Source: Acetonema longum DSM 6540
GTDB lineage: Bacteria; Bacillota; Negativicutes; Sporomusales; Acetonemataceae
Assembly: GCF_000219125.1 (NCBI RefSeq)
Contig: NZ_AFGF01000183.1
Span: 1-14,800, forward strand
Reading direction: 5' to 3'
Length of the DNA stretch: 14,800 nt
The translations under genes and the position numbers were made by a program. The notes beneath the pieces were generated by a model. That model did not search any database. It was given only the letters and a program-made list of their open reading frames with translations, and was not told the origin of the DNA. How positions within the stretch are numbered: the first letter of the stretch is position 1; every line of letters starts with the position of its first letter. Below are positions 1-14,800 of this stretch, one piece after another.

Positions 1-40
1 CTCCCAATAGTATTTAAAATACTTTTCTCTGTAGTCCGCA

Positions 41-112
41 TATATTTGCAAGTCTTCGATTGGGTGTCTATTGGACGATATCGCTCCTGTCAGAGTTACT
101 TGCAAGTCGTCG
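41..112. repeat. Direct repeat TTGCAAGTC(T/G)TCGA, two copies (41-54 and 99-112) about 58 bp apart
   Basis: 13/14 identical copies read directly from sequence. The minus strand across 1-105 is also an open frame without ATG running off the left edge (…LDDLQVTLTGAISSNRHPIEDLQIYADYREKYFKYYWE), so the repeat may be a peptide-level repeat instead. Confidence 0.3.
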
Positions 113-203
113 AGTAGTTTAAAGGCCTTCTTTCGAAAAATTAACTTACTATCAGCCCAACCACTTATCTATTCATTCATTTTGCCGGAAGCATACTCAC
201 AAC

Positions 204-253
204 AGAAAATCCTGTCAAATTTTCAATGTTCTTTGACAAATTTGGCAGGATTT
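204..253. promoter_or_regulatory. Imperfect ~16-bp inverted repeat (AAATCCTGTCAAATTT … AAATTTGGCAGGATTT) with a consensus -35 hexamer TTGACA (232-237) inside it; candidate operator/promoter for the WYL operon
   Basis: Arms 206-221 and 237-252 are reverse complements with one mismatch. The region is AT-rich and lies 170-220 bp upstream of the first WYL gene. Confidence 0.35.
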
Positions 254-423
254 CTATGTTTAGATTGAAAATATATAAAAACATTGTCCGAAAGAGGCGG
301 GATGAACAGCAGTGGAATTCGAGCCGAAATCACCCCGGTCTCTGATCTTCGGGAAAGGGATGAGTCAAGGCTGGATGGATAACCTCTGCACGGAACGGCG
401 AGGACGATTAGGTGGTGAAATAA

Positions 424-1665
424 ATGGCATACAGCGAGCTCATCAAGGACGTTTCACGCATAAGGAATTATATGCGTGAGTTTTTTGTGTACGGTTTCAA
501 GAGCCGTGACGAAGTTGGCGCAAAGAGCGCCCGCAGCTACGACAATGAAAAACGCCGTATTGAAAGCTGGCTCGCCGACTATATGTCATTCCGACAGGAC
601 GCGAACGGGAAGGCGGTCTTCCTCTCCGTCGACAGCCGGCACATACCGCACAATCCCTTATACAAAGCGTGGAAAGCCGCAAGCTTTACCAAGAACGACA
701 TCAGCCTGCATTTTATCTTGCTCGACATATTGGCCGACGGCAATCCGCGCAGTCTCTCCGAACTGCTTGACACCATCGAAGATGATTATCTGTCCTCGTT
801 TACCTATACGGAACCGTTAGATGAATCAACCCTAAGAAAGAAGCTAAAGGAATATACGGAAAAAGGCTTGCTTACTACTGTAAAGCGCGGCAAGCAGTAC
901 CTGTATTCATTGTCCGCGGACTCCGTTGATTTAGAAACGTGGCGAGAGGCTGTAACCTTCTTTTCCGAGGGCAGCCCGCTCGGCGTGGTCGGAAGTTTCC
1001 TGCTCGACAAGTACGAAGAGCAAAAGCCGGATGTGTTTTCGTTCAAGCATAGGTACCTTCTGTTCGCTCTGGATAACGGATCCCTTTTGGATTTGTTGAC
1101 CGCTGTCCATTTACGCCAAAAAGTTGAACTCGAACTCGCCGGAGGTAAAAACGGTGGCGCAAGGCAAGCCGTTACTGTTCCGCTGAAGATCTACATCAGC
1201 ACTCAGGGCGGCAGGCAATACCTGGCGGCTTACAGCCTTTGGAGAAAGAAAATAACCTTCTTTCGGTTGGACACCATTGTTAAGGTTAAGCCTATGGAGG
1301 TCGAGCCGGAGTACGATTCGTACAAATCCCTCCTGCAAAACGAACAGCCTCATATATGGGGCGTGTCCTGCGGTCAGTACAGGCTTGAACATATCGAGCT
1401 GACGCTGAAGGTTGACCCGAAAGATATACATATTGTCCATAGACTGGAGCGGGAAAAGCGGTGCGGTTCCGTAACAGAAACCTCTGACAACGAGTGGCGG
1501 TTCACAGCCGATGTGTACGATGCCTGGGAACTGATGCCCTGGCTTCGAACCTTCATCGGGCGTATTTCATCTTTGACTTGCTCCAACAAGAAGGTAGAAA
1601 AACAGTTCTGGTCGGACTTCTCTGTGCTTACCAAGATGTACGGAGGTGACGACGATGCTGTTTAG
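424..1665 (+). CDS. HTH-WYL-domain transcriptional regulator (BrxR/CapW/PafBC-like), 413 aa
   Basis: WYL-domain motifs: PLKIYISTQGGRQYLAAYSLW…ITFFRLDTIVKVK. A probable wHTH lies around NPRSLSELLDTIEDDYL. SD-like AGGTGGTGA sits upstream of the ATG. The 3' end overlaps the next gene by 20 nt. Confidence 0.7.
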   Translation: MAYSELIKDVSRIRNYMREFFVYGFKSRDEVGAKSARSYDNEKRRIESWLADYMSFRQDANGKAVFLSVDSRHIPHNPLYKAWKAASFTKNDISLHFILLDILADGNPRSLSELLDTIEDDYLSSFTYTEPLDESTLRKKLKEYTEKGLLTTVKRGKQYLYSLSADSVDLETWREAVTFFSEGSPLGVVGSFLLDKYEEQKPDVFSFKHRYLLFALDNGSLLDLLTAVHLRQKVELELAGGKNGGARQAVTVPLKIYISTQGGRQYLAAYSLWRKKITFFRLDTIVKVKPMEVEPEYDSYKSLLQNEQPHIWGVSCGQYRLEHIELTLKVDPKDIHIVHRLEREKRCGSVTETSDNEWRFTADVYDAWELMPWLRTFIGRISSLTCSNKKVEKQFWSDFSVLTKMYGGDDDAV

Positions 1666-2584
1666 CGAGGTATACTCCGCTTACTTCAATGCAGTTGCCG
1701 CCATCATCACGGAAGCATTGGAAAGTGAACTTACTGTAAAGCGAATGGACGAGATTATCCGCGAACGTGCTTTTTCCGCGAGCATGCTGACTATTTTACC
1801 CGCTCTTAAAAACTCTGAATGGACTATATTGGATAAGAACCTGCGAACTCCCATTAAGCGCAAACCCAAGATGCCGCTGACCATTTTGCAGAAGCGGTGG
1901 CTGAAAGCCATATCGCAAGACCTTCGCATCGCGCTCTTTGACGTTTCTTTACCGGGTCTTGAGGACATAGAACCTCTGTTTACGCCGGACGACTTTGTAT
2001 TCTTTGACCGTTATTCGGATTGTGACCCTTTTTCGGATACAGATTACATCACCCGCTTCAAGATGATTCTAACGGCTTTGCGGGAAAAGCGGCGGCTACG
2101 TATAGAGTACCGCAACCGCCATAACCGTCTGATGCAAGGCAGGTTTATTCCATATAGGCTGGAGTATTCCTCAAAGGACGACAAGTTCAGGCTCGAAACG
2201 ACGGGCGGGCGCTATGCGGCGTATATTAACCTTAAGCGCATCGAAAGCTGTGAATTGCTTGAGGCGTACGATGCGAACAGCATCATCCCTCCGGTACGAA
2301 GAGATGCCTCAGTCAGATTCCTGCTAAAAAATGAACGCAACGCTCTTGACCGCGTAATGCTCCACTTTTCGGACTGCCGCAAAGAAACGATGCGTTTGGA
2401 TAATGGTCTGTATGAGGTTCAGCTTTGGTACGAGGCGCAGGATGAAACCGAAATACTGATCCGCATCCTTTCATTCGGTCCCATGCTTAAGGTGACCGCC
2501 CCGGACAGCTTCATCTCGCTGATGAAAAACCGAATCTCTATGCAGCAGACATTCTCAAAGCAAGTTGCGGACTCGTCAAAATGA
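1646..2584 (+). CDS. Second WYL-domain regulator, 312 aa, paralogous partner of the upstream gene
   Basis: WYL-like core: RLRIEYRNRHNRLMQGRFIPYRLEYSSKDDKFRLETTGGRYAAYINLKRIESCELL. The start overlaps the upstream stop by 20 nt (translational coupling). Confidence 0.65.
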   Translation: MTTMLFSEVYSAYFNAVAAIITEALESELTVKRMDEIIRERAFSASMLTILPALKNSEWTILDKNLRTPIKRKPKMPLTILQKRWLKAISQDLRIALFDVSLPGLEDIEPLFTPDDFVFFDRYSDCDPFSDTDYITRFKMILTALREKRRLRIEYRNRHNRLMQGRFIPYRLEYSSKDDKFRLETTGGRYAAYINLKRIESCELLEAYDANSIIPPVRRDASVRFLLKNERNALDRVMLHFSDCRKETMRLDNGLYEVQLWYEAQDETEILIRILSFGPMLKVTAPDSFISLMKNRISMQQTFSKQVADSSK

Positions 2585-2600
2585 GTTCGCAACTTTTTTT
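2583..2600 (+). terminator. Weak intrinsic-terminator-like element: short hairpin (GAGTT-CGC-AACTT) followed by a T7 run
   Basis: TGAGTTCGCAACTTTTTTTCC lies immediately after the WYL2 stop. The stem is only 4-5 bp, so it is weak. Confidence 0.3.
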
Positions 2601-2640
2601 CCACGATTTTCATTTGTTCGATGAGTATAATGACAATGCA
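2597..2640 (+). promoter_or_regulatory. Candidate promoter with a perfect -10 TATAAT (2626-2631) and a poor -35
   Basis: TATAAT is seen directly. It would start a transcript with a ~440-nt structured leader/ncRNA ahead of the SPFH-RtcB genes. Confidence 0.3.
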
Positions 2641-2725
2641 AGGTCGCTTTTGCGTGGATGTCAAGGACTAAGCCGCACGAAGCCGTGAAATACCGCGGTG
2701 AAATGCAAATTTGAAGTCCTGCGGT

Positions 2726-2930
2726 GCCGAAAGCTGTGCTTTAACGGCATGCCGAGCGAATGCTTGCCCCTTTACCCCTTTACGCGGGTTCGAATCCCGC
2801 CTGACCTTTGCAGTCAGCCAGTGGTTTGGAAGAGACTCTATGATACGAGTGAAAACTCGCATCACGAATTCGTGTGTCGCGGCTTGCCCGCAAAGCCGTA
2901 CCCCTAATTGGGGTGGGGACGCAGTACCGC
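2726..2930 (+). ncRNA. Structured RNA candidate containing a canonical tRNA T-arm (2784-2800: GCGGG-TTCGAAT-CCCGC) followed immediately by a closed acceptor-like hairpin (2801-2817: CTGAC-CTTTGCA-GTCAG). Possible permuted tRNA mimic (Y-RNA-like/YrlA-like) or structured leader.
   Basis: The T-loop TTCGAAT with GGTTCGAATCC is exactly the tRNA T-psi-C consensus. No complementary 5' acceptor strand exists upstream, so it is not a standard tRNA. Confidence 0.4.
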
Positions 2931-3082
2931 TTTTGCCCTGCCGGACAGAGGATACCGCATAGGCACGGCAATCGCCAGAGCCAACGCTCCCGTGTTTGCC
3001 GGTGAGATGCTTAATTTATCCGCCGCAGAAGTTGGTATGGGCAATCCGCAATAACACACAACAAAGAAGGAGCGGAATCGCT

Positions 3083-4183
3083 ATGAAAACAATCATCATC
3101 AATGAAAACCAGAGAGGTCTGCTTTTTAAGAACGGCAAATTTGCCGCATACCTGAAACCCGGAAAGCACGTCAAGTTCGGGTGCAGCTTCAGCGTGGAAG
3201 TCTTACATACCGGTTCTGAGTTCAAAGTCCCGGGATACAACCTTGAGATCTTCCTGAAAAATGCGGAACTGGCAGGCGAGGTCGACGTTGTTGACGTAGC
3301 CGACGAGACGCTTGCATTGCATTTTGTGAACGGCAAATACGCGGGGACGCTGACTAGCGGCAAATACGCCTTTTTTAAAATTCACGACAAGCACGAATTC
3401 AGGCCTGTGGATATTACAACGCCGGAAGTGTCCGACGCTGTTCCCCAATATCTGTTTGCTTCCATTCCCAAGTATTTGTTCACCAAGGTTGAAGTTGCTG
3501 ATTATCAGAAGGCGCGGCTTTGCTATGACGGCAAGTTTGTCAGACTGCTGGAGCAGGGTACGTATTACTTCTGGAATAACGGCACCAAGGTGACCGCCGG
3601 GCTTGCGGATACGCGCTTACTGCAGATGGACATCACAGGGCAGGAAATGATGACCCTTGATAAGGTTGCTCTTCGCATTAATTTCGTGTGCAGCTATAAA
3701 ATCACGGACTATGTGAAGATCCACACGGAAATCGATGACTACGAAAGGCAGATACACATCCTGCTTCAGCTTGCACTGCGTGAGTATGTGGGCAGATATC
3801 GCCTTGACGAGATTCTCGAAAATAAGGAGCAGATGTCCTCAGCCATGCTGGCCCGTCTGAAAGAGAAGGAAGCCGGATACTTCGTGACCTTTTCCGATGC
3901 GGGAGTCAAGGACATTATCCTGCCGGGTGAAATCCGCAATATTATGAACACCGTCCTTATTGCGGAGAAGAAGGCGCAGGCGAACGTGATAACGAGACGC
4001 GAGGAAGTCGCGTCCACAAGAAGCCTGCTGAACACCGCCAAGTTGATGGACGAAAACCAGACGCTTTACAAGCTGAAAGAGCTTGAGTATCTGGAAAAAA
4101 TCTGCGACAATGTCGGGAGCATATCGGTCACCGGCGGCACTGACCTCCTGTCGCAGTTGACAAAAATACTGAAAGGTGCGTAA
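3083..4183 (+). CDS. Cytoplasmic SPFH/band-7 (stomatin/flotillin-like) domain protein with N-terminal beta-repeat units and a C-terminal helical region; ~366 aa from the RBS-supported start (ORF opens at 2996)
   Basis: SPFH core motifs: DKVALRINFVCSYKITD…LREYVGRYRLDEILENKEQ…GVKDIILPGEIRNIMNTVLIAEKKAQANVI. There is no hydrophobic TM stretch. The RBS AAGGAG at 3067-3072 sits 10 nt before ATG 3083, with only 5 nt to the RtcB start. Confidence 0.8.
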   Translation: MKTIIINENQRGLLFKNGKFAAYLKPGKHVKFGCSFSVEVLHTGSEFKVPGYNLEIFLKNAELAGEVDVVDVADETLALHFVNGKYAGTLTSGKYAFFKIHDKHEFRPVDITTPEVSDAVPQYLFASIPKYLFTKVEVADYQKARLCYDGKFVRLLEQGTYYFWNNGTKVTAGLADTRLLQMDITGQEMMTLDKVALRINFVCSYKITDYVKIHTEIDDYERQIHILLQLALREYVGRYRLDEILENKEQMSSAMLARLKEKEAGYFVTFSDAGVKDIILPGEIRNIMNTVLIAEKKAQANVITRREEVASTRSLLNTAKLMDENQTLYKLKELEYLEKICDNVGSISVTGGTDLLSQLTKILKGA

Positions 4184-4188
4184 TCGAA

Positions 4189-5409
4189 ATGGTTAAGATA
4201 GAAGGATTACACAATACCGCTGTCTGTTACACCCCACAATTAGAGGAGCGGGCGGCGGAGCAAATCAAAACAGTCTGCGACCAAGAAGTGTTCGCAGACT
4301 GCAAAATCCGCATAATGCCTGACGTTCACGCCGGCAAAGGTTGTACTGTCGGAACGACGATGACCATTACTGATAAGATTGTACCCGGCATGGTCGGTGT
4401 GGACATCGGCTGCGGCATCGAAACAATGCGTATCGATACTGCAGCGCTTGACTTCGCCCGCCTTGACGAGGTGATACATAAATGCATTCCAGCGGGCTTT
4501 GACGTTCGGAAAATCCCACACAAATATGCCGATGAGATTGATTTATCCGAACTCCGCTGTGCGAAGCACGTTAACCTCGACAGGGCTTACAAGAGCGTCG
4601 GAACTCTCGGCGGCGGGAATCACTTTATTGAGGTTGACCGAGCCGGGAGCGGCGAGTGGTACATTGTTGTTCACTCCGGCAGCCGGCATTTGGGCTGTGA
4701 GGTCGCGGAATACTACCAGAGCGAAGGTTACAACGCCTTGGGCGGTCACGTGCAGTTTCAACTTGAGCAGGTAATCGTACAGTTAAAAGCCGAAGGCAGG
4801 GAAAAGGAAATCCAAAGCACAATCAGGGCTTTGAAAGAACGGACGGCGATACCCGTGCCGAAAGACCTCGCCTACGTGGAAGGCAGTCTGTTCGACGATT
4901 ACATGCATGACATGAAGATTATGCAACGGTTCGCCGTTCTGAACCGCAAAGCGATGGTCGACACGATCCTTGTGGGTATGCGCCTGTCCGCTGCGGAAGA
5001 ATTCACGACCATTCACAACTACATAGATACTGATGCGATGGTTCTCCGCAAAGGCTCAGTGTCCGCAAAGGACGGCGAGAAGCTGCTCATACCAATCAAT
5101 ATGCGTGACGGCAGCTTAATCTGTGTTGGCAAGGGAAACCCTGAATGGAACTGCTCCGCTCCCCACGGCGCGGGTCGCCTTATGAGCCGGAGCAAGGCCT
5201 TTCAGGAATTGACGATGGAACAGTACCAGGCAGAAATGAGCGGAATCTACTCCACCTGCGTTCTGCCGGAAACGCTGGACGAATCGCCGATGGCGTATAA
5301 ATCGATTGACGAAATTATCGCTCAGATTGAGCCGACCGCTGAAATAATAGCGAGAATTAAGCCCTTCTACAATTTCAAGGCGGCTGAGCAAAAACGGAGG
5401 CGTCGGTGA
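4189..5409 (+). CDS. rtcB: RtcB RNA 3'-phosphate/2',3'-cyclic-phosphate RNA ligase, 406 aa
   Basis: Motifs line up with RtcB metal/GMP-binding residues: MPDVHAGKGCTVG, VGVDIGCGI, GGGNHFIEV, HSGSRHLG, HNYID, SAPHGAGR (nucleophilic His). Length matches E. coli RtcB. Confidence 0.9.
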   Translation: MVKIEGLHNTAVCYTPQLEERAAEQIKTVCDQEVFADCKIRIMPDVHAGKGCTVGTTMTITDKIVPGMVGVDIGCGIETMRIDTAALDFARLDEVIHKCIPAGFDVRKIPHKYADEIDLSELRCAKHVNLDRAYKSVGTLGGGNHFIEVDRAGSGEWYIVVHSGSRHLGCEVAEYYQSEGYNALGGHVQFQLEQVIVQLKAEGREKEIQSTIRALKERTAIPVPKDLAYVEGSLFDDYMHDMKIMQRFAVLNRKAMVDTILVGMRLSAAEEFTTIHNYIDTDAMVLRKGSVSAKDGEKLLIPINMRDGSLICVGKGNPEWNCSAPHGAGRLMSRSKAFQELTMEQYQAEMSGIYSTCVLPETLDESPMAYKSIDEIIAQIEPTAEIIARIKPFYNFKAAEQKRRRR

Positions 5410-5411
5410 AT

Positions 5412-5652
5412 ATGGAAAAGTTCATACCGTTCGAGAAGCTGTCGAAAAAGAAACAGCGAGAACATAATGCCCGAGAGCGGCGCGACTGGGGGTGTAATGA
5501 ATCCGGTCACCCGTGTGACTCCCGATCCCAAGGCATATGGCAGAAGCAAGGCAAAGGCTATCCGTAGAAATGATGGGGATAGCCTTTGCTTATATTTCAG
5601 CTTAAGCCGAAATGAAGGACAGGGATGCTGCGGCGTACCGGTCAAGCTGTAG
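5412..5652 (+). pseudogene. Small, highly basic (~79 aa) protein gene interrupted by a +1 frameshift at a G5 homopolymer
   Basis: Frame A (5412-5570) gives MEKFIPFEKLSKKKQREHNARERRDWG…. Frame B (through 5652) gives …NPVTRVTPDPKAYGRSKAKAIRRNDGDSLCLYFSL…. Deleting one G of TGGGGG fuses them into a continuous ORF. The start is 2 nt after the rtcB stop. Confidence 0.4.
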
Positions 5653-5699
5653 GCACAGTCAAGTCGATAGCCATTTTGAGTGGTGATTCTTTCAAGTCT

Positions 5700-5833
5700 T
5701 CCTGGTAAAAATGTTACAATTTGTAAAGGGATATAATGCAATCTGTCGAAATATATATAAAATTGACTTTACGCAATCGTAGGTGCACTGACCTCAATAT
5801 GGTTAGAATTTGTTAGTGATTTGAGGTAGTAAG
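5700..5833 (+). promoter_or_regulatory. AT-rich promoter region for the Wadjet operon, with a perfect -10 TATAAT (5732-5737), TTGACT (5763-5768), TAGAAT (5804-5809) and RBS GAGGTAGTAAG before jetA
   Basis: Hexamers read directly. The -35/-10 spacing is not ideal for any single pair, so the exact promoter is unresolved. Confidence 0.3.
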
Positions 5834-7306
5834 ATGGTACAGCAAAAAAATGAATTCTCGGAGCATATGTCCTTTGAATTCCTGGAATTATTGCGTAAGA
5901 AAAATCCGGCATGGCGATTATTGGCTTCGCCGCAGGCGCCTCTTGTTGCAGCTTTTCTTTATAAAGAATTCATTGCGGAAAACAAGCGATTGGTTGCTGA
6001 ACAGGAGTTGATCAGCCGCTTGGAAGGTTTTATCGACCGGCTAAGCCAGGGGCAAAATGAGCGCCTTTTTCCTAGAACAGGACGGGAATACCTGGATGAC
6101 TGGGCCGGTGATGAGCACGGTTGGCTGCGAAAGTTCTATCCTCCGGGGCAGGATGAACCCTATTTTGATGTAACCTCTCTGGCTCAGAAGGCCATTGAAT
6201 GGCTCTTGAGTTTAAGACAGCAAACCTTTATTGGTACAGAGTCGCGGTTAATCACAGTATTTGAGCTTTTGCACCAGATTGTGGAGCGTTCTGAAACGGA
6301 TCCCAAGCTGCGTTTGGCGGAACTGGAACGGCGAAAGGCGGAAATCGAACAGGAAATCATCCGAGTGCAAAACGGACAAGTAGCACTGTTAGATGAAACG
6401 CAAATCAAGGAACGCTTCTGGCAGGCGATGACAATAGCCCGAGAGATTCTGGCTGACTTTCGGGCTGTGGAACAGAATTTTCGGGACCTGGACCGGGGCA
6501 TGCGGGAACGGATTGCCACATGGGACCGGGGAAAAGGGGAGTTATTGGAAACCGTCTTTAGTGAACAGGATGGGATTGGGCAGTCGGAACAAGGGAAAAG
6601 TTTCGCTGCCTTCTGGAAATTTCTCATGTCCTCTTCCTATCAGGAGGATTTTCAGGATACTCTTGATAGGGCATTGCAGCTGAAAGCGGTGCACGAAATG
6701 AGTACGAGCCGGAATCTCCGGCATATTCACCATGACTGGGTGAACGCCGGCGCCCATGTTCAAGAGACGGTAGCCGTATTATCCCAGCAGTTGAGACGAT
6801 ATGTGGACGAGAATTTTTTGGAAGAAGAACGCCGGATCAACCAGATCATACGGGAAATCGAAGGAAAAGCTGTGGCCGTCCGCAATGACCCGCCGCAAGA
6901 ATGGGAAATGAAAATTGACGAGGTAGCTCCGGAAATTTCATTCCCTTTGGACAGGCCTCTGTTTACGCCTCCCCAACGACCGGAAATTAAAGACGACGTA
7001 ATCGGTGCCGGTGTGGAGGATGTGTCGGCGGAAGCGCTTTTTTCCCAGGTTTATGTGGATAAGGAAAAGTTAAAGGACCAGATTGGCTATCTGCTGCAGG
7101 CCCAGGACAGAATTACGCTGTCCCGGATCATTGAGCATTACCCGTTGGAATTGGGTTTAAGCGAGCTTGTAACTTATCTGGTCATTGCCAGCGAAAGTCC
7201 GCAGGCAGCCTTCTATCCGGAGGATGTGGAGGAAGTATCCTGGACCGATGAAACAGGAAAGAAAAAAGTGGCTAAGATGGCCAAAATTATTTTTCAGCGG
7301 ACTTAG
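5834..7306 (+). CDS. jetA: Wadjet JetA (DUF3375, MksF/kleisin-like), 490 aa
   Basis: N-terminal NPAWRLLASPQAPLVAAFLYKEFI matches the JetA family signature. It is followed by jetB, jetC and jetD in the canonical order. Confidence 0.85.
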   Translation: MVQQKNEFSEHMSFEFLELLRKKNPAWRLLASPQAPLVAAFLYKEFIAENKRLVAEQELISRLEGFIDRLSQGQNERLFPRTGREYLDDWAGDEHGWLRKFYPPGQDEPYFDVTSLAQKAIEWLLSLRQQTFIGTESRLITVFELLHQIVERSETDPKLRLAELERRKAEIEQEIIRVQNGQVALLDETQIKERFWQAMTIAREILADFRAVEQNFRDLDRGMRERIATWDRGKGELLETVFSEQDGIGQSEQGKSFAAFWKFLMSSSYQEDFQDTLDRALQLKAVHEMSTSRNLRHIHHDWVNAGAHVQETVAVLSQQLRRYVDENFLEEERRINQIIREIEGKAVAVRNDPPQEWEMKIDEVAPEISFPLDRPLFTPPQRPEIKDDVIGAGVEDVSAEALFSQVYVDKEKLKDQIGYLLQAQDRITLSRIIEHYPLELGLSELVTYLVIASESPQAAFYPEDVEEVSWTDETGKKKVAKMAKIIFQRT

Positions 7307-7330
7307 GACTGGTTTAGGGAGGTCAAAGGT

Positions 7331-7936
7331 ATGAATGTTTTGGATGATTTGGCATTTTCGAGGACTCTGGTGGCTCTCTTTAAAAACGTTATCTTTAAAG
7401 AAACAGACCCGGAAACTTGGGAAGTGATCTTGGCCCAGAAATATAAAATTGAGGATTATGTAAGCAAAGTCGGCCTCATCCTAATTGTTGACGAGATGGA
7501 TGGTTATGGGTATCTGAAACAGCGCCTTTACGGGGAAGGAGAGGAGGAGATTCCCCGTCTGGTGTCCCGTCATGCATTGAGTTATCCGGTCAGCCTCCTG
7601 CTTGTCCTGCTCCGAAAACAATTACTGGAGTTTGATTCAACTACAGGAGACCAGCGGCTCATCGTAACCAGGCAGCAGATTGCCGAACGGATGCAGTTGT
7701 TCCTGAAAGATACAACCAATGAAGCCAAAATGGTAGCGAATATTGACAACCATATTAAAAAGATTGAAGACATGGGTTTCTTGCGCCGTTTGCGGGGCAG
7801 CGAAGATAGTTTCGAAGTACAGCGCGTCCTTCGCAGTTTTGTCAATGCGGAATGGCTTCGTGATGTTAACGAACTGCTGGATAAGTATCGGGTTTATGCC
7901 GGCGGAGAGACAGGAGAAGGGGAGAGTCAGGAATGA
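7331..7936 (+). CDS. jetB: Wadjet JetB (DUF4194, MksE-like), 201 aa
   Basis: Size, position between jetA and jetC, acidic C-terminus, RBS GGGAGG, and a stop overlapping the jetC start (ATGA). Confidence 0.75.
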   Translation: MNVLDDLAFSRTLVALFKNVIFKETDPETWEVILAQKYKIEDYVSKVGLILIVDEMDGYGYLKQRLYGEGEEEIPRLVSRHALSYPVSLLLVLLRKQLLEFDSTTGDQRLIVTRQQIAERMQLFLKDTTNEAKMVANIDNHIKKIEDMGFLRRLRGSEDSFEVQRVLRSFVNAEWLRDVNELLDKYRVYAGGETGEGESQE

Positions 7937-10900
7937 GTTTGTTGAACTTGAAGCAGGAATATCCTGGGCTGCTCTTTGGCGCGACACCAGGTTTCCGGCT
8001 AGCCAAGCTGGAAGTGTTGAATTGGGGCACCTTTGACGGACAGGTCTGGACGTTTTCCCCCGGAGGGGAAACATCACTTTTGACTGGCGATGTGGGTTCG
8101 GGTAAATCTACTCTGGTCGATGCGCTGACAACCCTTCTGGTCGCGCCGCGAAAAGTAGCCTATAACAAAGCGGCTGATTCCAGTGCCAAGGAGCGTTCAA
8201 TCACGTCTTATGTCCGTGGTTACTTTGGTCAGAAGAAAAGCGCCGAAGGGACCGGCCAACCGGATTCTTTGAGGGATATGCAGCATTATTCCGTCTTGCT
8301 GGCGACCTTTCAGGACTCGGGTTTGTCCCAGTCTGTCACCTTAGCGCAGTTTTTTTGGTATCAGGATGCGCAGAAGCCACCGGCTCGTTTTTATGTTGTG
8401 GCTGATAAAGAAATGTGGATTACACAGGATTTTTCCAAGTTTGACAAGGATGTCCGCGAATTGAAAAAGCGTTTGAAAAATAGCGGTGTCCGGGTATTTG
8501 AGGATTATACCCGCTATGCGGAAGTTTTCCGCAGAAAATTTGGGATTGAACAGGAACAGGCCTTGGATTTATTTCAGCAGACTATTTCCATGAAAAAGGT
8601 GGAAGCCCTTACCGAGTTTGTACGGGCTAATATGCTGCAGGTTCCTAATACAGAAGAGGAAGTCGAGAAACTAAAAAATCATTTCCAAGATTTGAATAGT
8701 GCTCATGAGGCTGTTCTGAAGGCTAAGAGACAGATTGAACTGCTTCATCCCATTGCAGACCAGGGCAAACGCTGCGAACAGATGGATAACAGACAAAATC
8801 TGATGGAAAAGTCGCTCCGCGCCCTGAGTCCTTGGTTCGCGGAACAAACAGCGGCTTTGTTGACTGATGAAATCGCCAGGATTGAACAAGATCTGATTTT
8901 GGCTGCAGGGGCGCGGGAACAGGCGGAAATCAAACAACGAGAAATCGAAGAAAGTATCAAAAAGACCGAGCGAGATATTTACGCTAATGGCGGTGGGGCG
9001 TTGGAAGCATTAAAAGCTGAAATTGAGAACCTGCGCCAAATCCTTGATCACATTCGCAAAAACTGGGCAAACTATGCGAATTGTGCCGGAAAATTAAAAT
9101 TATCCATGCCAAAAACAGTGGACGATTTCATTAGCAACCGGTCAAAATTGCCGGAAATCAAGTCTAACGAAGAAACATTACAAGGTCGTTTGAATGCAGA
9201 CCTTCAGGCGGCTGCCGGGGAAACGGCCAGAGCGGAGAAAGAAACGCAGACAGTGGCTGAAGAACTGGAGTCTCTCCGTTCACGGAGAACAAGCATCCCC
9301 CGTGAATACATTGAGAAACGAAAACAACTCTGCCGAGATTTGAAGCTTGAGGAAACGGAACTCCCCTTTGCCGGCGAATTATTGGAAGTCAGGGAAGAAG
9401 AAGCCGGTTGGGAAGGCGCGATTGAAAGACTCCTGCATAATTTTGGCCTCTCGATGCTTGTGCCCGAAAAGCACTATCCGGCTGTCATGAGATGGGTGGA
9501 CCAGACGATGCTGGGAATAAGACTGGTCTATTACCGGGTATCCGAAACGTCACAGCCTGTTTCCGGTCAGCCGCATCCTGCGGCCGTATCGGAAAAGCTG
9601 AACATTAAGCCGAATACCTCCTTTGGCATTTGGCTGACCAGGGAACTCCGCCAGCGTTTCTCCCATGTTTGCTGCGAAGGCAGGGAGCAATTCAGCCGCG
9701 AATCGCTGGCCATTACCCAGGCCGGACAGATTAAGTCAAAAGGCAACCGGCATGAAAAAGACGATCGATACGCAATTGATGACCGCCGCCGTTACATCCT
9801 GGGATTTTCCAATCAGAAAAAAATTGAGGTCTTAGAGGCAAATGAGCAGGAACTCAAAGCAGAGATCCGATTCTACCGGGACGAAATCGACAATATTCGC
9901 AAGCAGCAAAAGGAAAGCCAGGAGCGGTTAAACGCTGCCGTCACTATGGAAGGAATCACCGGTTTTGCCGACATTGATACCCGTTCCAAGGAAAAAGAAA
10001 TCGATGAAAAAGAAGAGCGAAGAAAGAGAATAGAACAAGGAAGCGATGTGCTGCAAGAACTGCAGCACCGGTTGACTGAACTGGAGGAAATGAAGAAAAC
10101 TCAGGAAGATGTTTTAAAAAAGGCTGGCAAAAAGGAGACAACGCTTGAAAACAGGCTGGGAAGCCTTACTCAAGATAAGGAGCGGGCGGATGCAACCGCT
10201 GCGGAAACTGCGCCGGCAATGAAGGAAGAGGAATATCCCTTTTTAGAAAAAAACAAAGGCACGGCTTTGCAAAATAAGAAAGTAACCCTGGAAAGCAGAA
10301 TCGCGCTGGAACGGGATTACCGGGACTGGCTTGAGAAAGAACGCGGCATATTGGCAAGGGAGATTAGTCAGCTAAGAGGAAAAATTATCAAGGCCATGTC
10401 CGAATACAACAATCAGTACGCCGAAGAAACAAGAGAAGTGGATCCAAGTATGGAAAGCCTTCCGGAATATAACCGCATGCTGGCGCAACTGGAAAGCGAC
10501 GGATTGCCCCGGTTTGAAAAGCGGTTTAAGCAATTATTGCATGAAAACACGATCAATCAGATTGCCTTATTCCAGGCCAAATTAAAGCAGGAACAAGATA
10601 CTATTAAAAGTCGGATTGAACAAATCAACGGCTCTTTGAGCGCCATTGACTATGACGAAGGCCGCTATATCCGTCTGGAACATGACGAAACCTATGACAG
10701 CGATATCAAGGCTTTCCGGGTACAGCTGAAAGCCTGTACGGAAGGGGCCTTGACCGGATCCAGCGATGATCAATACGCGGAGACGAAGTTCCTGCAGGTG
10801 AAAGCTATCATTGAACGTTTCCGGGGCAGGCCCGGCGAGACGGAAAGCGATGCGCGCTGGACTAAAAAGGTGATTGACGTACGCAACTGGTTTTTATTCG

Positions 10901-11334
10901 CCGCTTCGGAACGGTGGCGCGAAACTGATGAGGAATATGAGCATTATACGGATTCGGGCGGAAAATCAGGCGGTCAGAAAGAAAAATTGGCTTATACGAT
11001 TCTCGCGGCTAGTCTGGTCTACCATTTCGGCTTGGAGGGACAGGATTCCCGGCCGCAATCCTTCCGTTTTGTCGTCATCGACGAGGCTTTTCTGAAGAGC
11101 TCGGACGAGTCGGCGCGGTTTGGGCTGGAACTGTTTAAAAAGCTGGATCTACAGCTGCTGATTGTCACGCCGTTGCTTAAGATCCCCACCATTGCTCACT
11201 TCATTGCTCATGTAGGCTTTGTGCATCATGATGATATCAGACATCGGTCCATGCTGCGAAATATCTCCATTGAAGAATACGAGCAGGAACGGAAGGCCCG
11301 GGAGGTAGCGCGCTATGTCCACCGGGTGGTCTGA
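7933..11334 (+). CDS. jetC: Wadjet JetC, SMC/MukB-like ATPase, 1133 aa
   Basis: Motifs present: N-terminal LEVLNWGTFDG, Walker A GDVGSGKST, long coiled-coil middle, ABC signature SGGKSGGQKEKLAYT, Walker B FRFVVIDEAF, and D-loop region LQLLIVTP. Confidence 0.9.
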   Translation: MSLLNLKQEYPGLLFGATPGFRLAKLEVLNWGTFDGQVWTFSPGGETSLLTGDVGSGKSTLVDALTTLLVAPRKVAYNKAADSSAKERSITSYVRGYFGQKKSAEGTGQPDSLRDMQHYSVLLATFQDSGLSQSVTLAQFFWYQDAQKPPARFYVVADKEMWITQDFSKFDKDVRELKKRLKNSGVRVFEDYTRYAEVFRRKFGIEQEQALDLFQQTISMKKVEALTEFVRANMLQVPNTEEEVEKLKNHFQDLNSAHEAVLKAKRQIELLHPIADQGKRCEQMDNRQNLMEKSLRALSPWFAEQTAALLTDEIARIEQDLILAAGAREQAEIKQREIEESIKKTERDIYANGGGALEALKAEIENLRQILDHIRKNWANYANCAGKLKLSMPKTVDDFISNRSKLPEIKSNEETLQGRLNADLQAAAGETARAEKETQTVAEELESLRSRRTSIPREYIEKRKQLCRDLKLEETELPFAGELLEVREEEAGWEGAIERLLHNFGLSMLVPEKHYPAVMRWVDQTMLGIRLVYYRVSETSQPVSGQPHPAAVSEKLNIKPNTSFGIWLTRELRQRFSHVCCEGREQFSRESLAITQAGQIKSKGNRHEKDDRYAIDDRRRYILGFSNQKKIEVLEANEQELKAEIRFYRDEIDNIRKQQKESQERLNAAVTMEGITGFADIDTRSKEKEIDEKEERRKRIEQGSDVLQELQHRLTELEEMKKTQEDVLKKAGKKETTLENRLGSLTQDKERADATAAETAPAMKEEEYPFLEKNKGTALQNKKVTLESRIALERDYRDWLEKERGILAREISQLRGKIIKAMSEYNNQYAEETREVDPSMESLPEYNRMLAQLESDGLPRFEKRFKQLLHENTINQIALFQAKLKQEQDTIKSRIEQINGSLSAIDYDEGRYIRLEHDETYDSDIKAFRVQLKACTEGALTGSSDDQYAETKFLQVKAIIERFRGRPGETESDARWTKKVIDVRNWFLFAASERWRETDEEYEHYTDSGGKSGGQKEKLAYTILAASLVYHFGLEGQDSRPQSFRFVVIDEAFLKSSDESARFGLELFKKLDLQLLIVTPLLKIPTIAHFIAHVGFVHHDDIRHRSMLRNISIEEYEQERKAREVARYVHRVV

Positions 11335-12493
11335 TCCGCAATGGATCCGGGAAGAACTGAGAAAGAAATGGGATTCTGGCAAGATTCTGCAGGCGCTGCT
11401 CATAGAGGAGGATTTATTTCCTCTCCGTTTACCGCTGAAAAGACCGAAAAGCAACGATGTGAACGAAAACTTTGCTGAAATTTCCCGTTGGATTAGACAG
11501 CTTAGGGATCATAGCAAGCAGAATACGGGTTTTGGCTATGAACTGATCGAGAAGGAAATGGTGCATCGCCAGTCCGGTCGCAATCTTCTGCCGACCCATG
11601 CCGTTGTTCCGACAGTGCGGGATGCCCTGCGCCTGATGAAAAAAGAGCGGGAAGCGGACAGATTCCTGGAGATTCTCGGGAGATTGTCGGCGGAATGGCC
11701 CGCATTACTGGAATGGGCCGGTAGACACCCTCATAAGGTACTGGCTGTCGGCGACGACTGGACAGGCATATTGGCTGTCTTGAAATGGTTTTCACTGAAT
11801 CCCAATTGCCAATTATATATGCGGCAATTGGATATTCCCGGCATTGACACCAAGTTTATTGAACAGCGAAAGGGAATTTTAACGGAACTACTGAATATCG
11901 TTTTGCCGGAAGAGACAATTAACCACAGCGCCACTTCTTTTGAGCAACGATTCGGATTGCGGGTCAAGCCGGTCCAGATAAGAATGCGATTGCTGGATCA
12001 GGCGCAATATATTCAGGGTCTTTCTGATCTGACAATTCCGGTGGAGCAGCTGATACTGCTAAAACCTGATGTAACCCGGGTCTTTATTACCGAGAATGAA
12101 ATCAACGGACTATGCTTTCCGGACGCCGGAAGCAGTCTGGTGATCTTCGGACTGGGATACAGTGTGGATGTATTGAAGGCTGTTACCTGGTTACAGGAGA
12201 AAGAAATCTATTATTGGGGCGATATTGATACCCACGGATTGGCCATTTTGGACCAAGTCCGAAGTTTCCTGCCGCAGACTTGTTCGATGCTCATGGATGA
12301 AAACACCCTGCTCAAGTACCGCGATCTCTGGAGCGTGGAAGATAAACCTTTTTTGGGGAAAGTCACTCGGTTAACCTCGGATGAAAATCAGCTACTCTGT
12401 TCACTTCAAAACAATAGGTGGGGCAAGGGCGTCCGGTTAGAGCAAGAGCGAGTTTCTTTTCAGCAGGTGAAGCAGTTCCTTTCAACTCTTTAA
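11315..12493 (+). CDS. jetD: Wadjet JetD (DUF2220, topoisomerase-VI/Toprim-like nuclease subunit), 392 aa
   Basis: Toprim motifs are present: VFITENEINGL (catalytic Glu) and YYWGDIDTHGLAIL (DxD). It overlaps the jetC 3' end by 20 nt. Confidence 0.85.
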   Translation: MSTGWSDPQWIREELRKKWDSGKILQALLIEEDLFPLRLPLKRPKSNDVNENFAEISRWIRQLRDHSKQNTGFGYELIEKEMVHRQSGRNLLPTHAVVPTVRDALRLMKKEREADRFLEILGRLSAEWPALLEWAGRHPHKVLAVGDDWTGILAVLKWFSLNPNCQLYMRQLDIPGIDTKFIEQRKGILTELLNIVLPEETINHSATSFEQRFGLRVKPVQIRMRLLDQAQYIQGLSDLTIPVEQLILLKPDVTRVFITENEINGLCFPDAGSSLVIFGLGYSVDVLKAVTWLQEKEIYYWGDIDTHGLAILDQVRSFLPQTCSMLMDENTLLKYRDLWSVEDKPFLGKVTRLTSDENQLLCSLQNNRWGKGVRLEQERVSFQQVKQFLSTL

Positions 12494-12558
12494 CCTACTT
12501 CAGCACAAGAAGTAAAGGAGAATATTCGCCTCCAATTTGAGAATCCAAGGCTGTCCAA

Positions 12559-12591
12559 AAGTAATGGCAGAGTTGTCCCATTATATGCCAT
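12559..12591. repeat. 8-9 bp inverted repeat GTAATGGCA … TGCCATTA(A) with a 16-nt spacer at the jetD/Fic junction
   Basis: Read directly: 12559-12567 and 12584-12591. Confidence 0.3.
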
Positions 12592-12702
12592 TAAATACCA
12601 AAGACAGAGCCTCTGTTCCGGGCCTATGCGTCATCCGGTGCGGCGGCTCTTCTTTTAGCTGCTGTTCATCAGCTATTACCCCCTTGTCACCCGCTATACA
12701 GC

Positions 12703-13278
12703 ATGGAAGATTTGTTCGGTTGGGCGAAAGCCTCGGAACTGCACCCCGTGCTGAAAAGCGCGATTCTGCATTATGAAATCGAAACCATCCATCCGTTTTC
12801 GGACGGTAACGGTCGTATGGGCCGGTTATGGCAAACGCTCCTGCTCGCCAAATGGAACGCAATTTTCGCGTGGATACCGATGGAATCGGTGCTGTACCAA
12901 AATAGGCCGCAGTACTATCAGGCGATTGAAAACGCAAGCAAAGCCAACGATTCCGGCGTGTTCATTGAATTTACGCTTTCCGCGATTTATGAAATCATCG
13001 CAGAACAAGCAAAGCACCAAGTTAAGCACGAAGATAAGCACCAAGTCGAACTCTCCGACACGCAGCTTGCCGTGCTGAACGCGCTTAAAAATAAGACTTT
13101 ATCGCGCAAAGATATATTTGCCGCAATCGGAATGAACGGCGATTCACGCTCGTTCAAGCGGCACATCGAGCCGCTCTTAGACGAGGGCTTAATAGAAATG
13201 ACCGTACCCGACAAGCCGAACAGCCGAATGCAAAAGTATCGGCTGGCCGAAGCGGGCAAGGAAAGAGTAAAGGAATAA
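12703..13278 (+). pseudogene. Fic/DOC family protein lacking the N-terminal ~150 aa; the Fic motif and C-terminal winged-helix are retained
   Basis: HPFSDGNGRMGRLW is the Fic consensus HPFx(D/E)GNGRxxR. The C-terminal wHTH reads …KYRLAEAGKERV. The motif sits only ~35 aa from the ORF start. An in-frame stop at 12592 and non-Fic-like sequence upstream indicate 5' truncation. Confidence 0.6.
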
Positions 13279-13293
13279 GCCGGAGGCTTAGAT

Positions 13294-13512
13294 ATGCTGT
13301 CAGACACAATCAAATATGGCAGACATCATCGCTCGATACTCCATTTTTGTGTTCAAATTTTCAATTTAGGGGAATGGTTATTGCTGGTAGAGCAGATTTA
13401 TCGGACGATGAAGATTGGAGGGGAGAACCGTATCAGAGCTAACGGCAAAAAAATAGTCGAAGTTCCTGCAAAGATTTTGATATTTGCAGGAACTTTTGTA
13501 TTTATAAGGTAA
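13294..13512 (+). CDS. Hypothetical small protein (72 aa) with a good SD (GGAGG, 7-nt spacer); its 3' end runs through the terminator hairpin
   Basis: The RBS is seen directly. No recognisable family, so it may be spurious. Confidence 0.25.
   Translation: MLSDTIKYGRHHRSILHFCVQIFNLGEWLLLVEQIYRTMKIGGENRIRANGKKIVEVPAKILIFAGTFVFIR
13460..13505. terminator. Bidirectional intrinsic terminator: perfect 13-bp inverted repeat (AAGTTCCTGCAAA / TTTGCAGGAACTT, 10-nt loop), followed by TTTTGTATTT on + and preceded by A7 (T7 on the minus strand)
   Basis: Read directly from sequence. Confidence 0.5.
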
Positions 13513-13568
13513 TTTATTTATATAAAACCAGGCGCTACGTGCGCTAAAATAAGTGAAGGTGATCTGAG

Positions 13569-13787
13569 ATGAATCTGGAAGAGAAAATCATTTTATATAC
13601 AACAGACAGCGGTAATGTGAGCGTTTCGGTACGCTTCGAAAACGGAAACTTCTGGATGATCCAGAAAGCGATTGCGGAGTTATTTGAAACAGACCGCAGT
13701 GTCATTACGAAACATCTCTCGAACATCTATGCGAGGAAGAACTGGATAAGGAGTCAACCTGTGCAAAATTTGCACAGGTTCAAATAA
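13569..13787 (+). pseudogene. N-terminal fragment (72 aa) of a RhuM / Fic-DOC N-terminal-domain family protein
   Basis: MNLEEKIILYTTDSGNVSVSVRFENGNFWMIQKAIAELFETDRSVITKHLSNIY matches the conserved N-terminus of virulence-RhuM/Fic-DOC family proteins (full length ~330 aa). The ORF stops shortly afterwards. Confidence 0.5.
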
Positions 13788-13821
13788 AAGCTAATCGTGA
13801 GGTTTCGACAGGAGGTAAACT

Positions 13822-14361
13822 ATGCCCAGACCTGCAGCCAAGCCGGACTTGATCAAGGCGGCTAACGAACAATTTGAGAAGATGTGGAAGCTCATCGGCT
13901 CTATGACAAACGACGGGCAGAACGCAGCGTTCAATTTCGGCGACGATATCGGCACAGAAGCGCACTGGAAACGCGATAAAAATCTGCGTGACGTGCTTGT
14001 CCATCTGTATGAATGGCACCAGTTGCTGCTGGACTGGGTGAACGCCAACCGGAGCGGCAAAGCAAAGTCGTTTTTGCCCGCGCCTTACAACTGGAGAACA
14101 TACGGTGATATGAACGTGGAGTTTTGGAAGAAACACCAGTCCACACCTTATGAGACATCCAAGGAGATGCTCCGCGAGAGCCACGAGAAAGTCATGGTGT
14201 TAATTGACGGCTTCTCCAACGAGGAACTGTTTGAAAAGGGATGCTTGCCTTGGGCTGGAACGTCAACTCTCGGAAGCTACTGCGTTTCCGAAACGTCGAG
14301 CCATTACGACTGGGCGATAAAAAAGATTAAGGCGCACATCAAGACATACAAGGCTTCATGA
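13822..14361 (+). CDS. ClbS/DfsB family protein (DUF1706), 179 aa
   Basis: The N-terminus MPRPAAKPDLIKAANEQFEKMWKLIGSMT closely parallels ClbS (…SKEELIKAINSNF…LESIT). HLYEWHQLLLDW and FSNEELF correspond to ClbS FSNDELY. Strong RBS AGGAGGT. Confidence 0.8.
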   Translation: MPRPAAKPDLIKAANEQFEKMWKLIGSMTNDGQNAAFNFGDDIGTEAHWKRDKNLRDVLVHLYEWHQLLLDWVNANRSGKAKSFLPAPYNWRTYGDMNVEFWKKHQSTPYETSKEMLRESHEKVMVLIDGFSNEELFEKGCLPWAGTSTLGSYCVSETSSHYDWAIKKIKAHIKTYKAS

Positions 14362-14783
14362 TGCACTATACCGATTACAAAACTATCCTCTCCCCACAGA
14401 AAGGAATAAACCTGTATCGTGGCTGCTCGCACGGCTGCATCTATTGCGATAGCCGGAGTGCCTGTTATCAGATAAACCACGACTTCGAAGACATCGAGGT
14501 GAAGCGCGACGCCCCGCGAATCCTTGAAGCGCAGCTTCGCCGCATAAGGAAACCGTGCATGATTAGCACCGGAGCGATGTGTGACCCATACCTTCCCTTG
14601 GAAGATGATTTGCAGATAACGCGGGAATGTCTCGCACTGATTGAAAAATATGGCTTCGGCCTGGCGGTTCTGACGAAATCCGCTCGAATACTGCGGGATT
14701 TAGATATTCTGACGGCAATTAACGCAAAGACGAAATCGGAAAGTTTCGAAGCTGTCACACCCCGATGGAGACCTATCAGATAG
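14358..14783 (+). CDS. Radical SAM protein of the SPL / COG1533 DNA-repair-photolyase-like family; only the N-terminal 141 aa before a stop 17 nt from the window edge, possibly disrupted
   Basis: Motif INLYRGCSHGCIYCDSRS (CxxxCxxC). The start ATGA overlaps the ClbS-like stop. Typical family members are ~300 aa, and this ORF stops where conserved downstream motifs would be expected. Confidence 0.55.
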   Translation: MMHYTDYKTILSPQKGINLYRGCSHGCIYCDSRSACYQINHDFEDIEVKRDAPRILEAQLRRIRKPCMISTGAMCDPYLPLEDDLQITRECLALIEKYGFGLAVLTKSARILRDLDILTAINAKTKSESFEAVTPRWRPIR

Positions 14784-14800
14784 GCCCAATTTTTTCATTC

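Follow-up and report, generated by a model that had tools for sequence, protein, structure and literature searches.

A WYL-associated variant of the predicted RtcB/Band-7/tRNA-like RNA system in Acetonema longum and other Bacillota

The DNA analysed here was a 14,800-nucleotide stretch of Acetonema longum DSM 6540 (NCBI RefSeq assembly GCF_000219125.1, contig NZ_AFGF01000183.1, positions 1 to 14,800, forward strand; referred to as the window throughout). The subject is a cassette at 424-5409 made up of two genes for WYL-domain proteins (WYL1 and WYL2), a non-coding region that specifies a structured RNA, a gene for an SPFH/Band-7 protein and a gene for an RtcB-family protein. The cassette is a member of the RtcB/Band-7/b7a-tRNA system predicted in 2016, of which it represents an uncharacterised, putatively WYL-regulated variant from Bacillota. 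The two WYL genes, the RNA and the SPFH gene make up its invariant core, and RtcB is a frequent but facultative component. The RNA is a leader of ~445 nt in which three parts covary: a three-way junction at the 5' end, a T-arm with two hairpins behind it, and a 120-nt rod. It is not a tRNA, is linked one-to-one with the SPFH gene and pairs strictly with SPFH rather than with RtcB. A sequence-only reading of the same DNA had proposed four co-directional elements at these positions, all of which were found on the + strand with small corrections to the coordinates (WYL2 start at 1655, SPFH start at 3083). The observation itself was confirmed, and the interpretation placed on it was partly supported.

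According to the passages of a later bioRxiv paper on the YrlA structure that describe their work (10.1101/312249), Burroughs & Aravind (2016) predicted an association, in certain bacteria, of RtcB with a Band-7 protein and a predicted non-coding RNA (ncRNA) named b7a-tRNA, short for 'band 7-associated tRNA'. In the same passages the b7a-tRNA system is described as functionally parallel to Rsr/YrlA and its RNA as never validated; the system is proposed to comprise a scaffold plus an RNA cofactor for RNA ligation. As in that system, the Band-7/SPFH gene of the window adjoins RtcB, and an ncRNA with tRNA features lies directly upstream. The cassette had been called undescribed, a claim that was withdrawn because the window belongs to the system predicted in 2016. 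The b7a-tRNA 'strongly resembles an authentic tRNA' in the wording of those passages (10.1101/312249), whereas the window RNA has no anticodon arm, no acceptor stem and no ARAGORN or Rfam match, is ~445 nt long with two additional covarying domains, and is accompanied by a WYL pair as presumed regulator. The WYL link may already have been noted in 2016, since a passage in a later paper from the same group cites the 2016 work for WYL domains and 2',3'-cyclic RNA ends. Neither the RNA as a whole, with its three-way junction, T-arm triplet and 120-nt rod, nor the strict RNA-SPFH pairing, the promoter box or the facultative RtcB was mentioned in Rfam or in the searchable literature, in which the 2016 prediction is represented by the citing paper, and the literature searched held no experimental work on the Bacillota-type cassette. 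With a mapped box, regulator pair, three RNA domains, SPFH protein and ligase, the 2016 prediction becomes concrete and experiment-ready.

Conservation of the cassette

The SPFH alignment was scanned against one genome per GTDB species, which returned at least 600 matching stretches, and the best 80 loci were taken. These related loci were all from Bacillota and covered many families; their open reading frames (ORFs) were searched with the window proteins. In 51 loci the upstream sequence extended over at least 3.3 kb, and 43 of these had WYL1 and WYL2 directly upstream of SPFH (38 pairs co-directional, 5 divergent); WYL2 always occurred with WYL1. The same compact RtcB was found no more than 2.5 kb downstream in 43/66 loci (65%) with at least 1.5 kb of downstream sequence. 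Together with recovery of the RNA in 74/81 sources (described below), these counts bear out the earlier claim that the elements form a conserved unit and are not chance neighbours. The claim that RtcB belongs to this unit stands for the 43 loci in which it is adjacent; it is not a fixed member, being absent downstream in 23/66.

The flanks of the cassettes were heterogeneous, with 105 ORFs representing 135 different Pfam families. RlaP, a nucleotidyltransferase family named after its association with RNA-repair ligases, was the commonest extra neighbour (3 times), and none of RtcA, archease, Hen1/Pnkp or defence genes recurred among these 105 ORFs. Because the flanking genes vary and RtcB is missing in about a third of loci, the module is regarded as self-contained and set in variable genomic contexts. 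The identity of 65-88% between SPFH proteins of distant families suggests that the cassette has spread laterally. No SPFH homologue was present in 50,697 phage records.

The same comparison bears on the view that the window holds unrelated neighbours, namely an ordinary membrane-organising SPFH protein beside an RtcB and regulators that have nothing to do with it. Proteins of the SPFH type are common, and the names given to the homologues in databases ('slipin', 'regulator of protease activity HflC') suggest membrane roles. However, gene order was conserved across 80 species with a taxon spread that argues against a sampling artefact from one clade, the RNA and SPFH gene were coupled one-to-one, and the very high identity across distant families is consistent with transfer as a unit. 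The SPFH protein also has no membrane segment, as the sequence-only reading had stated: the maximum Kyte-Doolittle hydropathy over 19 residues was 0.81 in the window protein and at most 1.23 in 28 homologues. This view is refuted by the neighbourhood analysis and was given almost no credence.

Six loci carry an extra conserved ORF of ~205-230 amino acids between the 3' rod of the RNA and the SPFH gene (L021 806-1465, L033 7339-7980, L046, L048, L059 and L073), with motifs such as YHCIFSRSYDGYVRQKHIEALL and MISYWNE[FY]YR and no Pfam match.

The structured RNA and its promoter

The claim that the gap between WYL2 and SPFH contains a structured non-coding region with a T-arm was borne out by covariation. 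In the 5' domain, P1 pairs GCAAG (2638-2642) with CUUGC (2763-2767) and P1b pairs 2644-2649 with 2754-2759. The enclosed junction carries a P2 hairpin of variable length (2664-2720) and a highly conserved P3 hairpin (2723-2753; GGUGCnn...nnGUAUGCC), in which the variable pairs show 25 and 12 two-sided compensatory changes. Because one-column misalignments cost RNAalifold both P1 and P6 on plain MAFFT alignments, the two stems were tested alignment-free, P1 by comparing native with swapped partners and P6 by comparison with shuffles. Native P1 strands gave -12.8 kcal/mol versus -8.2 kcal/mol for strands swapped between loci, with the native pairing better in 47/48 cases (Wilcoxon p = 2e-9). The architecture of the 5' domain was also seen in most single-sequence folds.

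The tRNA-like module begins with the T-arm (GCGGGTTCGAATCCCGC, 2784-2800), in which the stem pairs show 15 and 18 compensatory changes; the T-loop motif was present in 60/74 related upstream regions. P6, directly after the T-arm, folded at -6.6 kcal/mol versus -1.6 kcal/mol for shuffled sequences, and the native sequence was better in 45/45 loci. P7 has a conserved YGGW loop with visible compensatory changes and was recovered by RNAalifold. The window's own minimum-energy fold of 2784-2829 consists of three consecutive hairpins. An acceptor stem formed by AAGGTC (2640-) and GACCTT (2803-) was ruled out, covariation making 2801-2817 a local hairpin. A long-range GCGGU/ACCGC pairing of two RNA domains was likewise ruled out, L028 and L043 not being compensated.

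The 3' core is an unbranched rod of 116-134 nt (37 loci) with invariant internal loops (GCCYUGCC/GCCGC and GGAUACCG/CUNAA), and it is reproduced by the minimum-energy fold of the window. On the plain MAFFT alignment 85.6% of cells were paired versus ~41% when slid, and 35/41 pairs showed two-sided changes; on the model-fitted alignment the values were 90.9% versus ~40%, with 31/34 pairs showing two-sided changes. A GGAUA/UAUCC hairpin over the invariant GGAUACCG was rejected, being present in a subset of sequences only. A covariance model of the rod (R1) gave exactly one match per locus in 74/81 sources (73/80 relatives and the window), always on the SPFH strand and just upstream of SPFH, and no matches elsewhere in the 0.97 Mb of these sources. 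Five of the seven loci without a match (L009, L032, L042, L065, L066) are on contigs that break off within the SPFH gene or no more than ~360 nt before its start; in the other two (L072, L086) upstream sequence was present and gave no match.

No tRNA was called in the window by ARAGORN; the RNA has a T-arm only, and its ends form no acceptor stem. Weak ARAGORN calls were obtained in 2/80 relatives. A search of 2585-3082 against 4227 Rfam families gave no match at E up to 1, and for the most tRNA-like relative the best Rfam result was a 14-bit match of the T-arm to tmRNA. A hairpin with a 7-nt loop (YUGUNAR) stands 4-7 nt before the T-arm in ~12/67 relatives. Read as an anticodon, this loop gives GUC (6), GUA (2), GUU (2) or GUG (1), that is, the Asp/Tyr/Asn/His set. 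These are the queuosine tRNAs, which are cleaved by colicin E5. The GUN anticodon-like arm would fit a decoy or substrate-mimic role and is suggestive of a tRNA-directed function. About nine other loci have a second T-loop hairpin (GGGGUUCAACUCCCC) before the T-arm. Whatever its function, the RNA merits a family entry as a strongly structured, unannotated RNA with a constant 120-nt core.

Directly after WYL2 lies a box with the consensus TTCGCARC-T7-CCGTGA, conserved to at least 90% in the MAFFT alignment. A strict pattern (regular expression) matched it in 54/80 sources, always 19 nt upstream of a TAnAAT -10 element, which would place the transcription start near 2637. In the window and the other co-directional loci the box also forms the right arm of a terminator-like hairpin, by pairing with a complement in the coding end of WYL2. 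Where the WYL pair is not directly upstream, the left arm of this hairpin is missing and the box stays; box and -10 spacing are kept without the complement in L021, L024, L041, L070, L071, L073, L077 and L082. Where WYL1 and SPFH are divergent, the box lies between the two genes. Because it is kept when its hairpin partner is lost, and because of its position between the divergent genes, the box is considered a candidate promoter/operator element in its own right. The hexamer at the -35 position of the RNA-SPFH promoter is poor (CGTGAt/a), from which activator dependence of this promoter was inferred.

The inverted repeat at 204-253 had been put forward as the WYL operator. It carries two TTGACA -35 boxes of divergent promoter-like sites (+ strand 233-260, - strand 218-190) and is not matched by any similar element ahead of WYL1 in 47 other loci. 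As the repeat is not conserved and the box at 2586-2606 is near-invariant, the latter appears to be the better operator candidate.

Encoded proteins, related systems and proposed function

WYL1 matched Pfam WYL (E 9e-07) and, weakly, WCX; within its family WYL was detected in 31/31 members and a PaaX-like winged helix-turn-helix (wHTH) in 14/31. An AlphaFold2 model was built on 39 homologues (mean predicted local distance difference test score, pLDDT, 66) and comprised a wHTH (94-165), a WYL barrel (218-293) and a WCX domain (297-405); the first 90 residues were poorly modelled, and the remainder had pLDDT 75-94. Its top Foldseek neighbours were DriD, PafBC, BrxR and CapW (E 1e-10 to 1e-7). 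On this model WYL1 is a predicted wHTH-WYL-WCX protein resembling a transcription factor. Single-sequence searches of WYL1 and WYL2 against the PDB gave no matches, and their profiles gave only marginal ones to PafB/PafC, those of the WYL1 profile being PafB (E 0.0095) and PafC (E 0.76), inside the WYL domain only. WYL2 showed a weak WYL match (E 1e-3), and its family contained WCX in 28/32 members and WYL in 9/32. The description of both proteins as helix-turn-helix (HTH)-WYL proteins therefore holds for WYL1 and not for WYL2, in which no HTH was detectable. The start of WYL2 overlaps the WYL1 stop (1663-1665) by 11 nt and relatives show ATGA overlaps, an arrangement compatible with translational coupling; the profile-profile relation between WYL1 and WYL2 was weak.

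The wHTH-WYL-WCX fold predicted for WYL1 is that of the actinobacterial heterodimer PafBC and of DriD, CapW and BrxR. As in pafB-pafC, the WYL genes of the window are tandem, overlapping and paralogous, and the conserved box adjoins the -35 region or overlaps with it, as would be expected of an activator that works near RNA polymerase. Unlike these regulators, WYL1 has only marginal sequence similarity to them (PDB profile E ~0.01) and ~90 extra N-terminal residues, and WYL2 is without a recognisable HTH.

The SPFH protein matched Pfam Band_7 (E 6e-30) and consists of three beta repeats at the N-terminus, followed by an SPFH domain and a helix of 60 residues. Its fold is that of a stomatin/HflK-like SPFH domain with a long helix, a plan shared with the cage-forming SPFH proteins stomatin, HflK/C, prohibitin and flotillin; unlike these, it has no membrane anchor. 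In being membrane-free, having extra N-terminal beta domains and being tied genetically to a structured RNA, it is like the major vault protein with its vault RNA. Residues 1-176 (window 3083-3600) hold three tandem beta motifs of ~65 residues (NGK[FY]xxxLxxGK[HY]xF), which look like triplicated first strands of the SPFH domain. A TTG start at 2996 for the SPFH ORF was dismissed as an artefact, the gene callers and the ribosome-binding site (RBS) at 3066-3072 favouring ATG 3083.

RtcB starts 5 nt after the SPFH stop, as had been reported. It matched Pfam RtcB (E 2.8e-60) and fell under the cut-offs of the named NCBIfam RtcB models, as a compact, divergent member. When aligned with Pyrococcus horikoshii RtcB, the catalytic motifs were kept (DxGCG, GNHF, VHSGSR, HGAGR), with intact metal-binding Asp/Cys, His motifs and HGAGR nucleophile motif; on these grounds it is predicted to belong to the 3'-phosphate/2',3'-cyclic-phosphate RNA ligase family. 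Two related loci (L083 6257-7486, L085 6243-7481) carry an RtcB of canonical length (PF01139, 373 bits, full model) upstream of RNA-SPFH, with a divergent WYL pair; these proteins belong to another subfamily and stand in another gene order than in the window cassette.

The window cassette differs from the canonical rtcR-rtcBA operon in having neither RtcR (CARF, sigma-54 AAA+ and HTH domains) nor the RtcA cyclase. A domain search of all window ORFs found no RtcR, RtcA, Rsr/TROVE or archease domains, in agreement with the sequence-only reading, which had listed RtcR, RtcA, archease and Rsr as missing. The Salmonella rsr-yrlBA-rtcBA operon is similar in that an ncRNA with a tRNA-like module lies in an RtcB operon beside a ring- or cage-forming scaffold; the Salmonella module has a T-arm and a closed acceptor-like helix, and damage induction of these systems is known or proposed. 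In contrast to Salmonella, the scaffold in the window is SPFH and not TROVE/Ro, there is no Rsr, RtcA, RtcR or Rfam match to Y RNA (YrlA/YrlB), and the promoter appears sigma-70-like with a WYL-type box, the rsr operon being sigma-54-dependent and controlled by RtcR.

A further arrangement was found in Citrobacter freundii (NZ_CP151862.1, 3960-7913), in which a divergent rtcR, a 449-nt gap, a slipin homologue and a nucleotidyltransferase gene occur without RtcB. The slipin is a full-length homologue (33% identical over residues 2-354, a span that takes in the N-terminal repeats), and the gap contains a sigma-54-like TGGCAC-N5-TGGCA and two T-loop hairpins; the R1 rod model gave no match in it. 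The order of a ~450-nt T-loop gap, SPFH and an enzyme of RNA-repair type is that of the window, whereas the regulator is RtcR with a sigma-54-like promoter and the partner is a nucleotidyltransferase and not RtcB. An SPFH gene (PaFlo8) is also reported inside the rtcR/rtcB/rtcA locus of Pseudomonas aeruginosa (PMC13086221).

Because RtcB is adjacent in 65% of loci, RlaP is the top extra neighbour and the proteobacterial SPFH homologue is under RtcR, the proposed link of the cassette to RNA repair was judged reasonable. The explanation that we favour, and consider fairly probable, is that of a Bacillota, WYL-regulated version of the predicted RtcB/Band-7/tRNA-like RNA system, for which the following mechanism is inferred. 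WYL1 and WYL2 would be made from their own, non-conserved promoter and would form a heterodimer like PafB/PafC. On binding a nucleic-acid damage signal (single-stranded DNA, ssDNA, or RNA ends) the dimer would engage the box at -52 to -32 and turn on the RNA-SPFH-RtcB transcript. An SPFH oligomer would then bind the structured leader, either still attached or processed, with the rod serving as the protein-binding element. The T-arm module with its stacked hairpin could mimic the acceptor/T minihelix and elbow of a tRNA, in analogy to Ro/Y-RNA (YrlA), and the resulting soluble ribonucleoprotein (RNP) would scaffold or specialise the work of RtcB in healing and sealing the ends of cleaved tRNA-like substrates. 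In loci without an adjacent RtcB, a ligase or nucleotidyltransferase encoded elsewhere would act.

Several findings weigh against this mechanism. One-third of the loci have no adjacent RtcB, and in these 23/66 the next genes are unrelated housekeeping genes (prfB, cyclophilin, transporters, AraC-type regulators). The DriD and CapW entries near WYL1 were solved with bound ssDNA and not RNA. None of the 32 members of the WYL2 family has an HTH, and no DNA-binding domain was detectable in it. The only related SPFH gene with a genetic test is PaFlo8, the deletion of which gave no phenotype in assays of growth, virulence factors, motility, biofilm or oxidative stress. In the RNA, window positions 2768-2783 hold a tandem 8-nt repeat (CCCTTTAC twice) in place of the anticodon-like arm of some relatives. 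Single-sequence folding was modest (whole-gap minimum free energy z-score -2.72, domain z-scores -1.2 to -2.0), so that the case for RNA structure is comparative and not thermodynamic. No terminator or processing signal was found between the RNA and SPFH.

Since nothing of this kind separates the RNA from SPFH, a purely cis-acting role has to be weighed, in which the 445-nt region would be a 5' leader of riboswitch or attenuator type, governing translation of the SPFH-RtcB mRNA or its stability, and would not be a partner RNA of SPFH. In keeping with such a role the RNA invariably occupies the 5' end of the operon on the same strand, a position that it keeps even with an extra ORF inserted before SPFH, and in most loci the 3' rod ends ~40-45 nt before the SPFH start codon, with no terminator-like site in between. 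However, no conserved expression platform was seen, there being no alternative terminator and no overlap of the rod with the RBS. Size, modularity, a true T-arm and, in some loci, an anticodon-like arm are typical of protein-bound ncRNAs (YrlA), and T-loop hairpins also accompany the proteobacterial SPFH homologues, where the regulator is a different one, RtcR with sigma-54. A role confined to cis action was accordingly held to be unlikely.

The ssDNA-bound structures and the loci without RtcB point in another direction, towards a module that would act primarily in DNA damage or against phages, with the WYL dimer sensing ssDNA in the manner of PafBC, DriD and CapW, the SPFH-RNA particle working in defence or abortive infection and RtcB as an accessory (e.g., in capping or ligation of DNA 3'-phosphate ends). 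WYL1 has its structural relatives among regulators that are bound to ssDNA or belong to defence loci, RtcB is absent beside one-third of cassettes, the window cassette abuts a Wadjet system, and Escherichia coli RtcB can act on DNA ends (PMC7790460). Against this, adjacency to Wadjet or other defence systems is not recurrent, phage records yielded no SPFH homologues, only RNA-repair genes (RtcB, RlaP, RtcR) recur as functional partners, and the RNA, by its tRNA-like features, points to tRNA biology. We rate a primary function in defence as quite improbable, below that of a cis-acting leader. The earlier remark that the cassette was placed next to a DNA-defence system is correct for the window, where Wadjet adjoins it; the placement is specific to this contig, with Jet genes near 0/80 related cassettes.

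A more far-reaching form of the favoured repair mechanism is put forward tentatively and considered rather unlikely. The RNA, which occurs in at least 600 species genomes and is not in Rfam, would represent a new class of large, structured ncRNAs of bacteria and form a soluble, vault- or Ro-like RNP cage with the membrane-free SPFH protein; the T-arm and, in some species, the GUN anticodon stem-loop would mimic tRNA, either to capture cleaved tRNAs for resealing or to act as a decoy for anticodon nucleases, and a PafBC-like WYL heterodimer would switch the particle on upon damaged ends. If true, an RNA-loaded soluble SPFH cage would be a prokaryotic counterpart of the vault and Ro RNPs, and a family otherwise seen as membrane organisers would gain a new function. 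What RtcB does in bacterial physiology is largely an open question, and so is why RNA ligases travel with scaffold proteins and tRNA-like RNAs. The cassette is compact, very widespread and apparently mobile, and every part of it is mapped, which makes the question of RNA repair by an SPFH-RNA particle directly testable.

Feature coordinates and neighbouring genes

Positions of the cassette elements and of the adjoining defence system are collected in Table 1.

Table 1. Features of the window, with positions counted from its first nucleotide.
Feature	Positions	Strand	Details
WYL1	424-1665	+	413 amino acids
WYL2	1655-2584	+	309 amino acids; likely start ATG 1655 behind RBS GGAGGTG 1642-1648; same start chosen by gene callers
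Terminator-like hairpin and T-run	2562-2603	+	15-pair stem; left arm in the coding end of WYL2, right arm formed by the box
Non-coding gap between WYL2 and SPFH	2585-3082	+	498 nt
Near-invariant box TTCGCAAC-T7-CCACGA	2586-2606	+	candidate operator/promoter element, ~-52 to -32 of the RNA-SPFH promoter
-10 hexamer TATAAT	2626-2631	+	TAnAAT in relatives, often TGnTAAAAT, at a fixed distance from the box
RNA 5' domain, long stem enclosing a three-way junction	2638-2767	+	covariation and strand-swap test
tRNA-like module	2784-2829	+	T-arm 2784-2800, P6 2801-2817, P7 2818-2829
Variable linker with local hairpins	2830-2918	+	sequence and length poorly conserved; columns ~40-240 of alignment A5 mostly gaps or variable hairpins
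RNA 3' core, unbranched 120-nt rod	2919-3040	+	covariance model R1, 86.1 bits, E 2.4e-21 in the window
SPFH/Band-7 ('slipin') protein without transmembrane segment	3083-4183	+	366 amino acids; ATG 3083 behind RBS GAAGGAG 3066-3072
RtcB	4189-5409	+	406 amino acids, compact
Wadjet JetABCD, complete	5834-12493		directly downstream of RtcB

The Wadjet components encoded in the window were JetA (DUF3375), JetB (DUF4194/MksE), JetC (SMC-like ATPase) and JetD (DUF3322 and JetD_C). The interval between RtcB and JetA contains a 61-amino-acid ORF (5467-5652), which was also predicted by the gene callers and had no Pfam match. Past Wadjet the window holds a Fic fragment, a DUF1706 gene and the beginning of a radical-SAM gene. 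The Fic-family ORF (12703-13278) covers positions 46-93 of the 93-position Fic profile (the last 48) and a Fic-like C-terminal domain, and may be N-terminally truncated or mis-started. A near-perfect, AT-rich hairpin at 13452-13503 (GUUCCUGCAAA...UUUGCAGGAAC) lies among small ORFs; it matched a microRNA model at chance level on both strands and may be a terminator.

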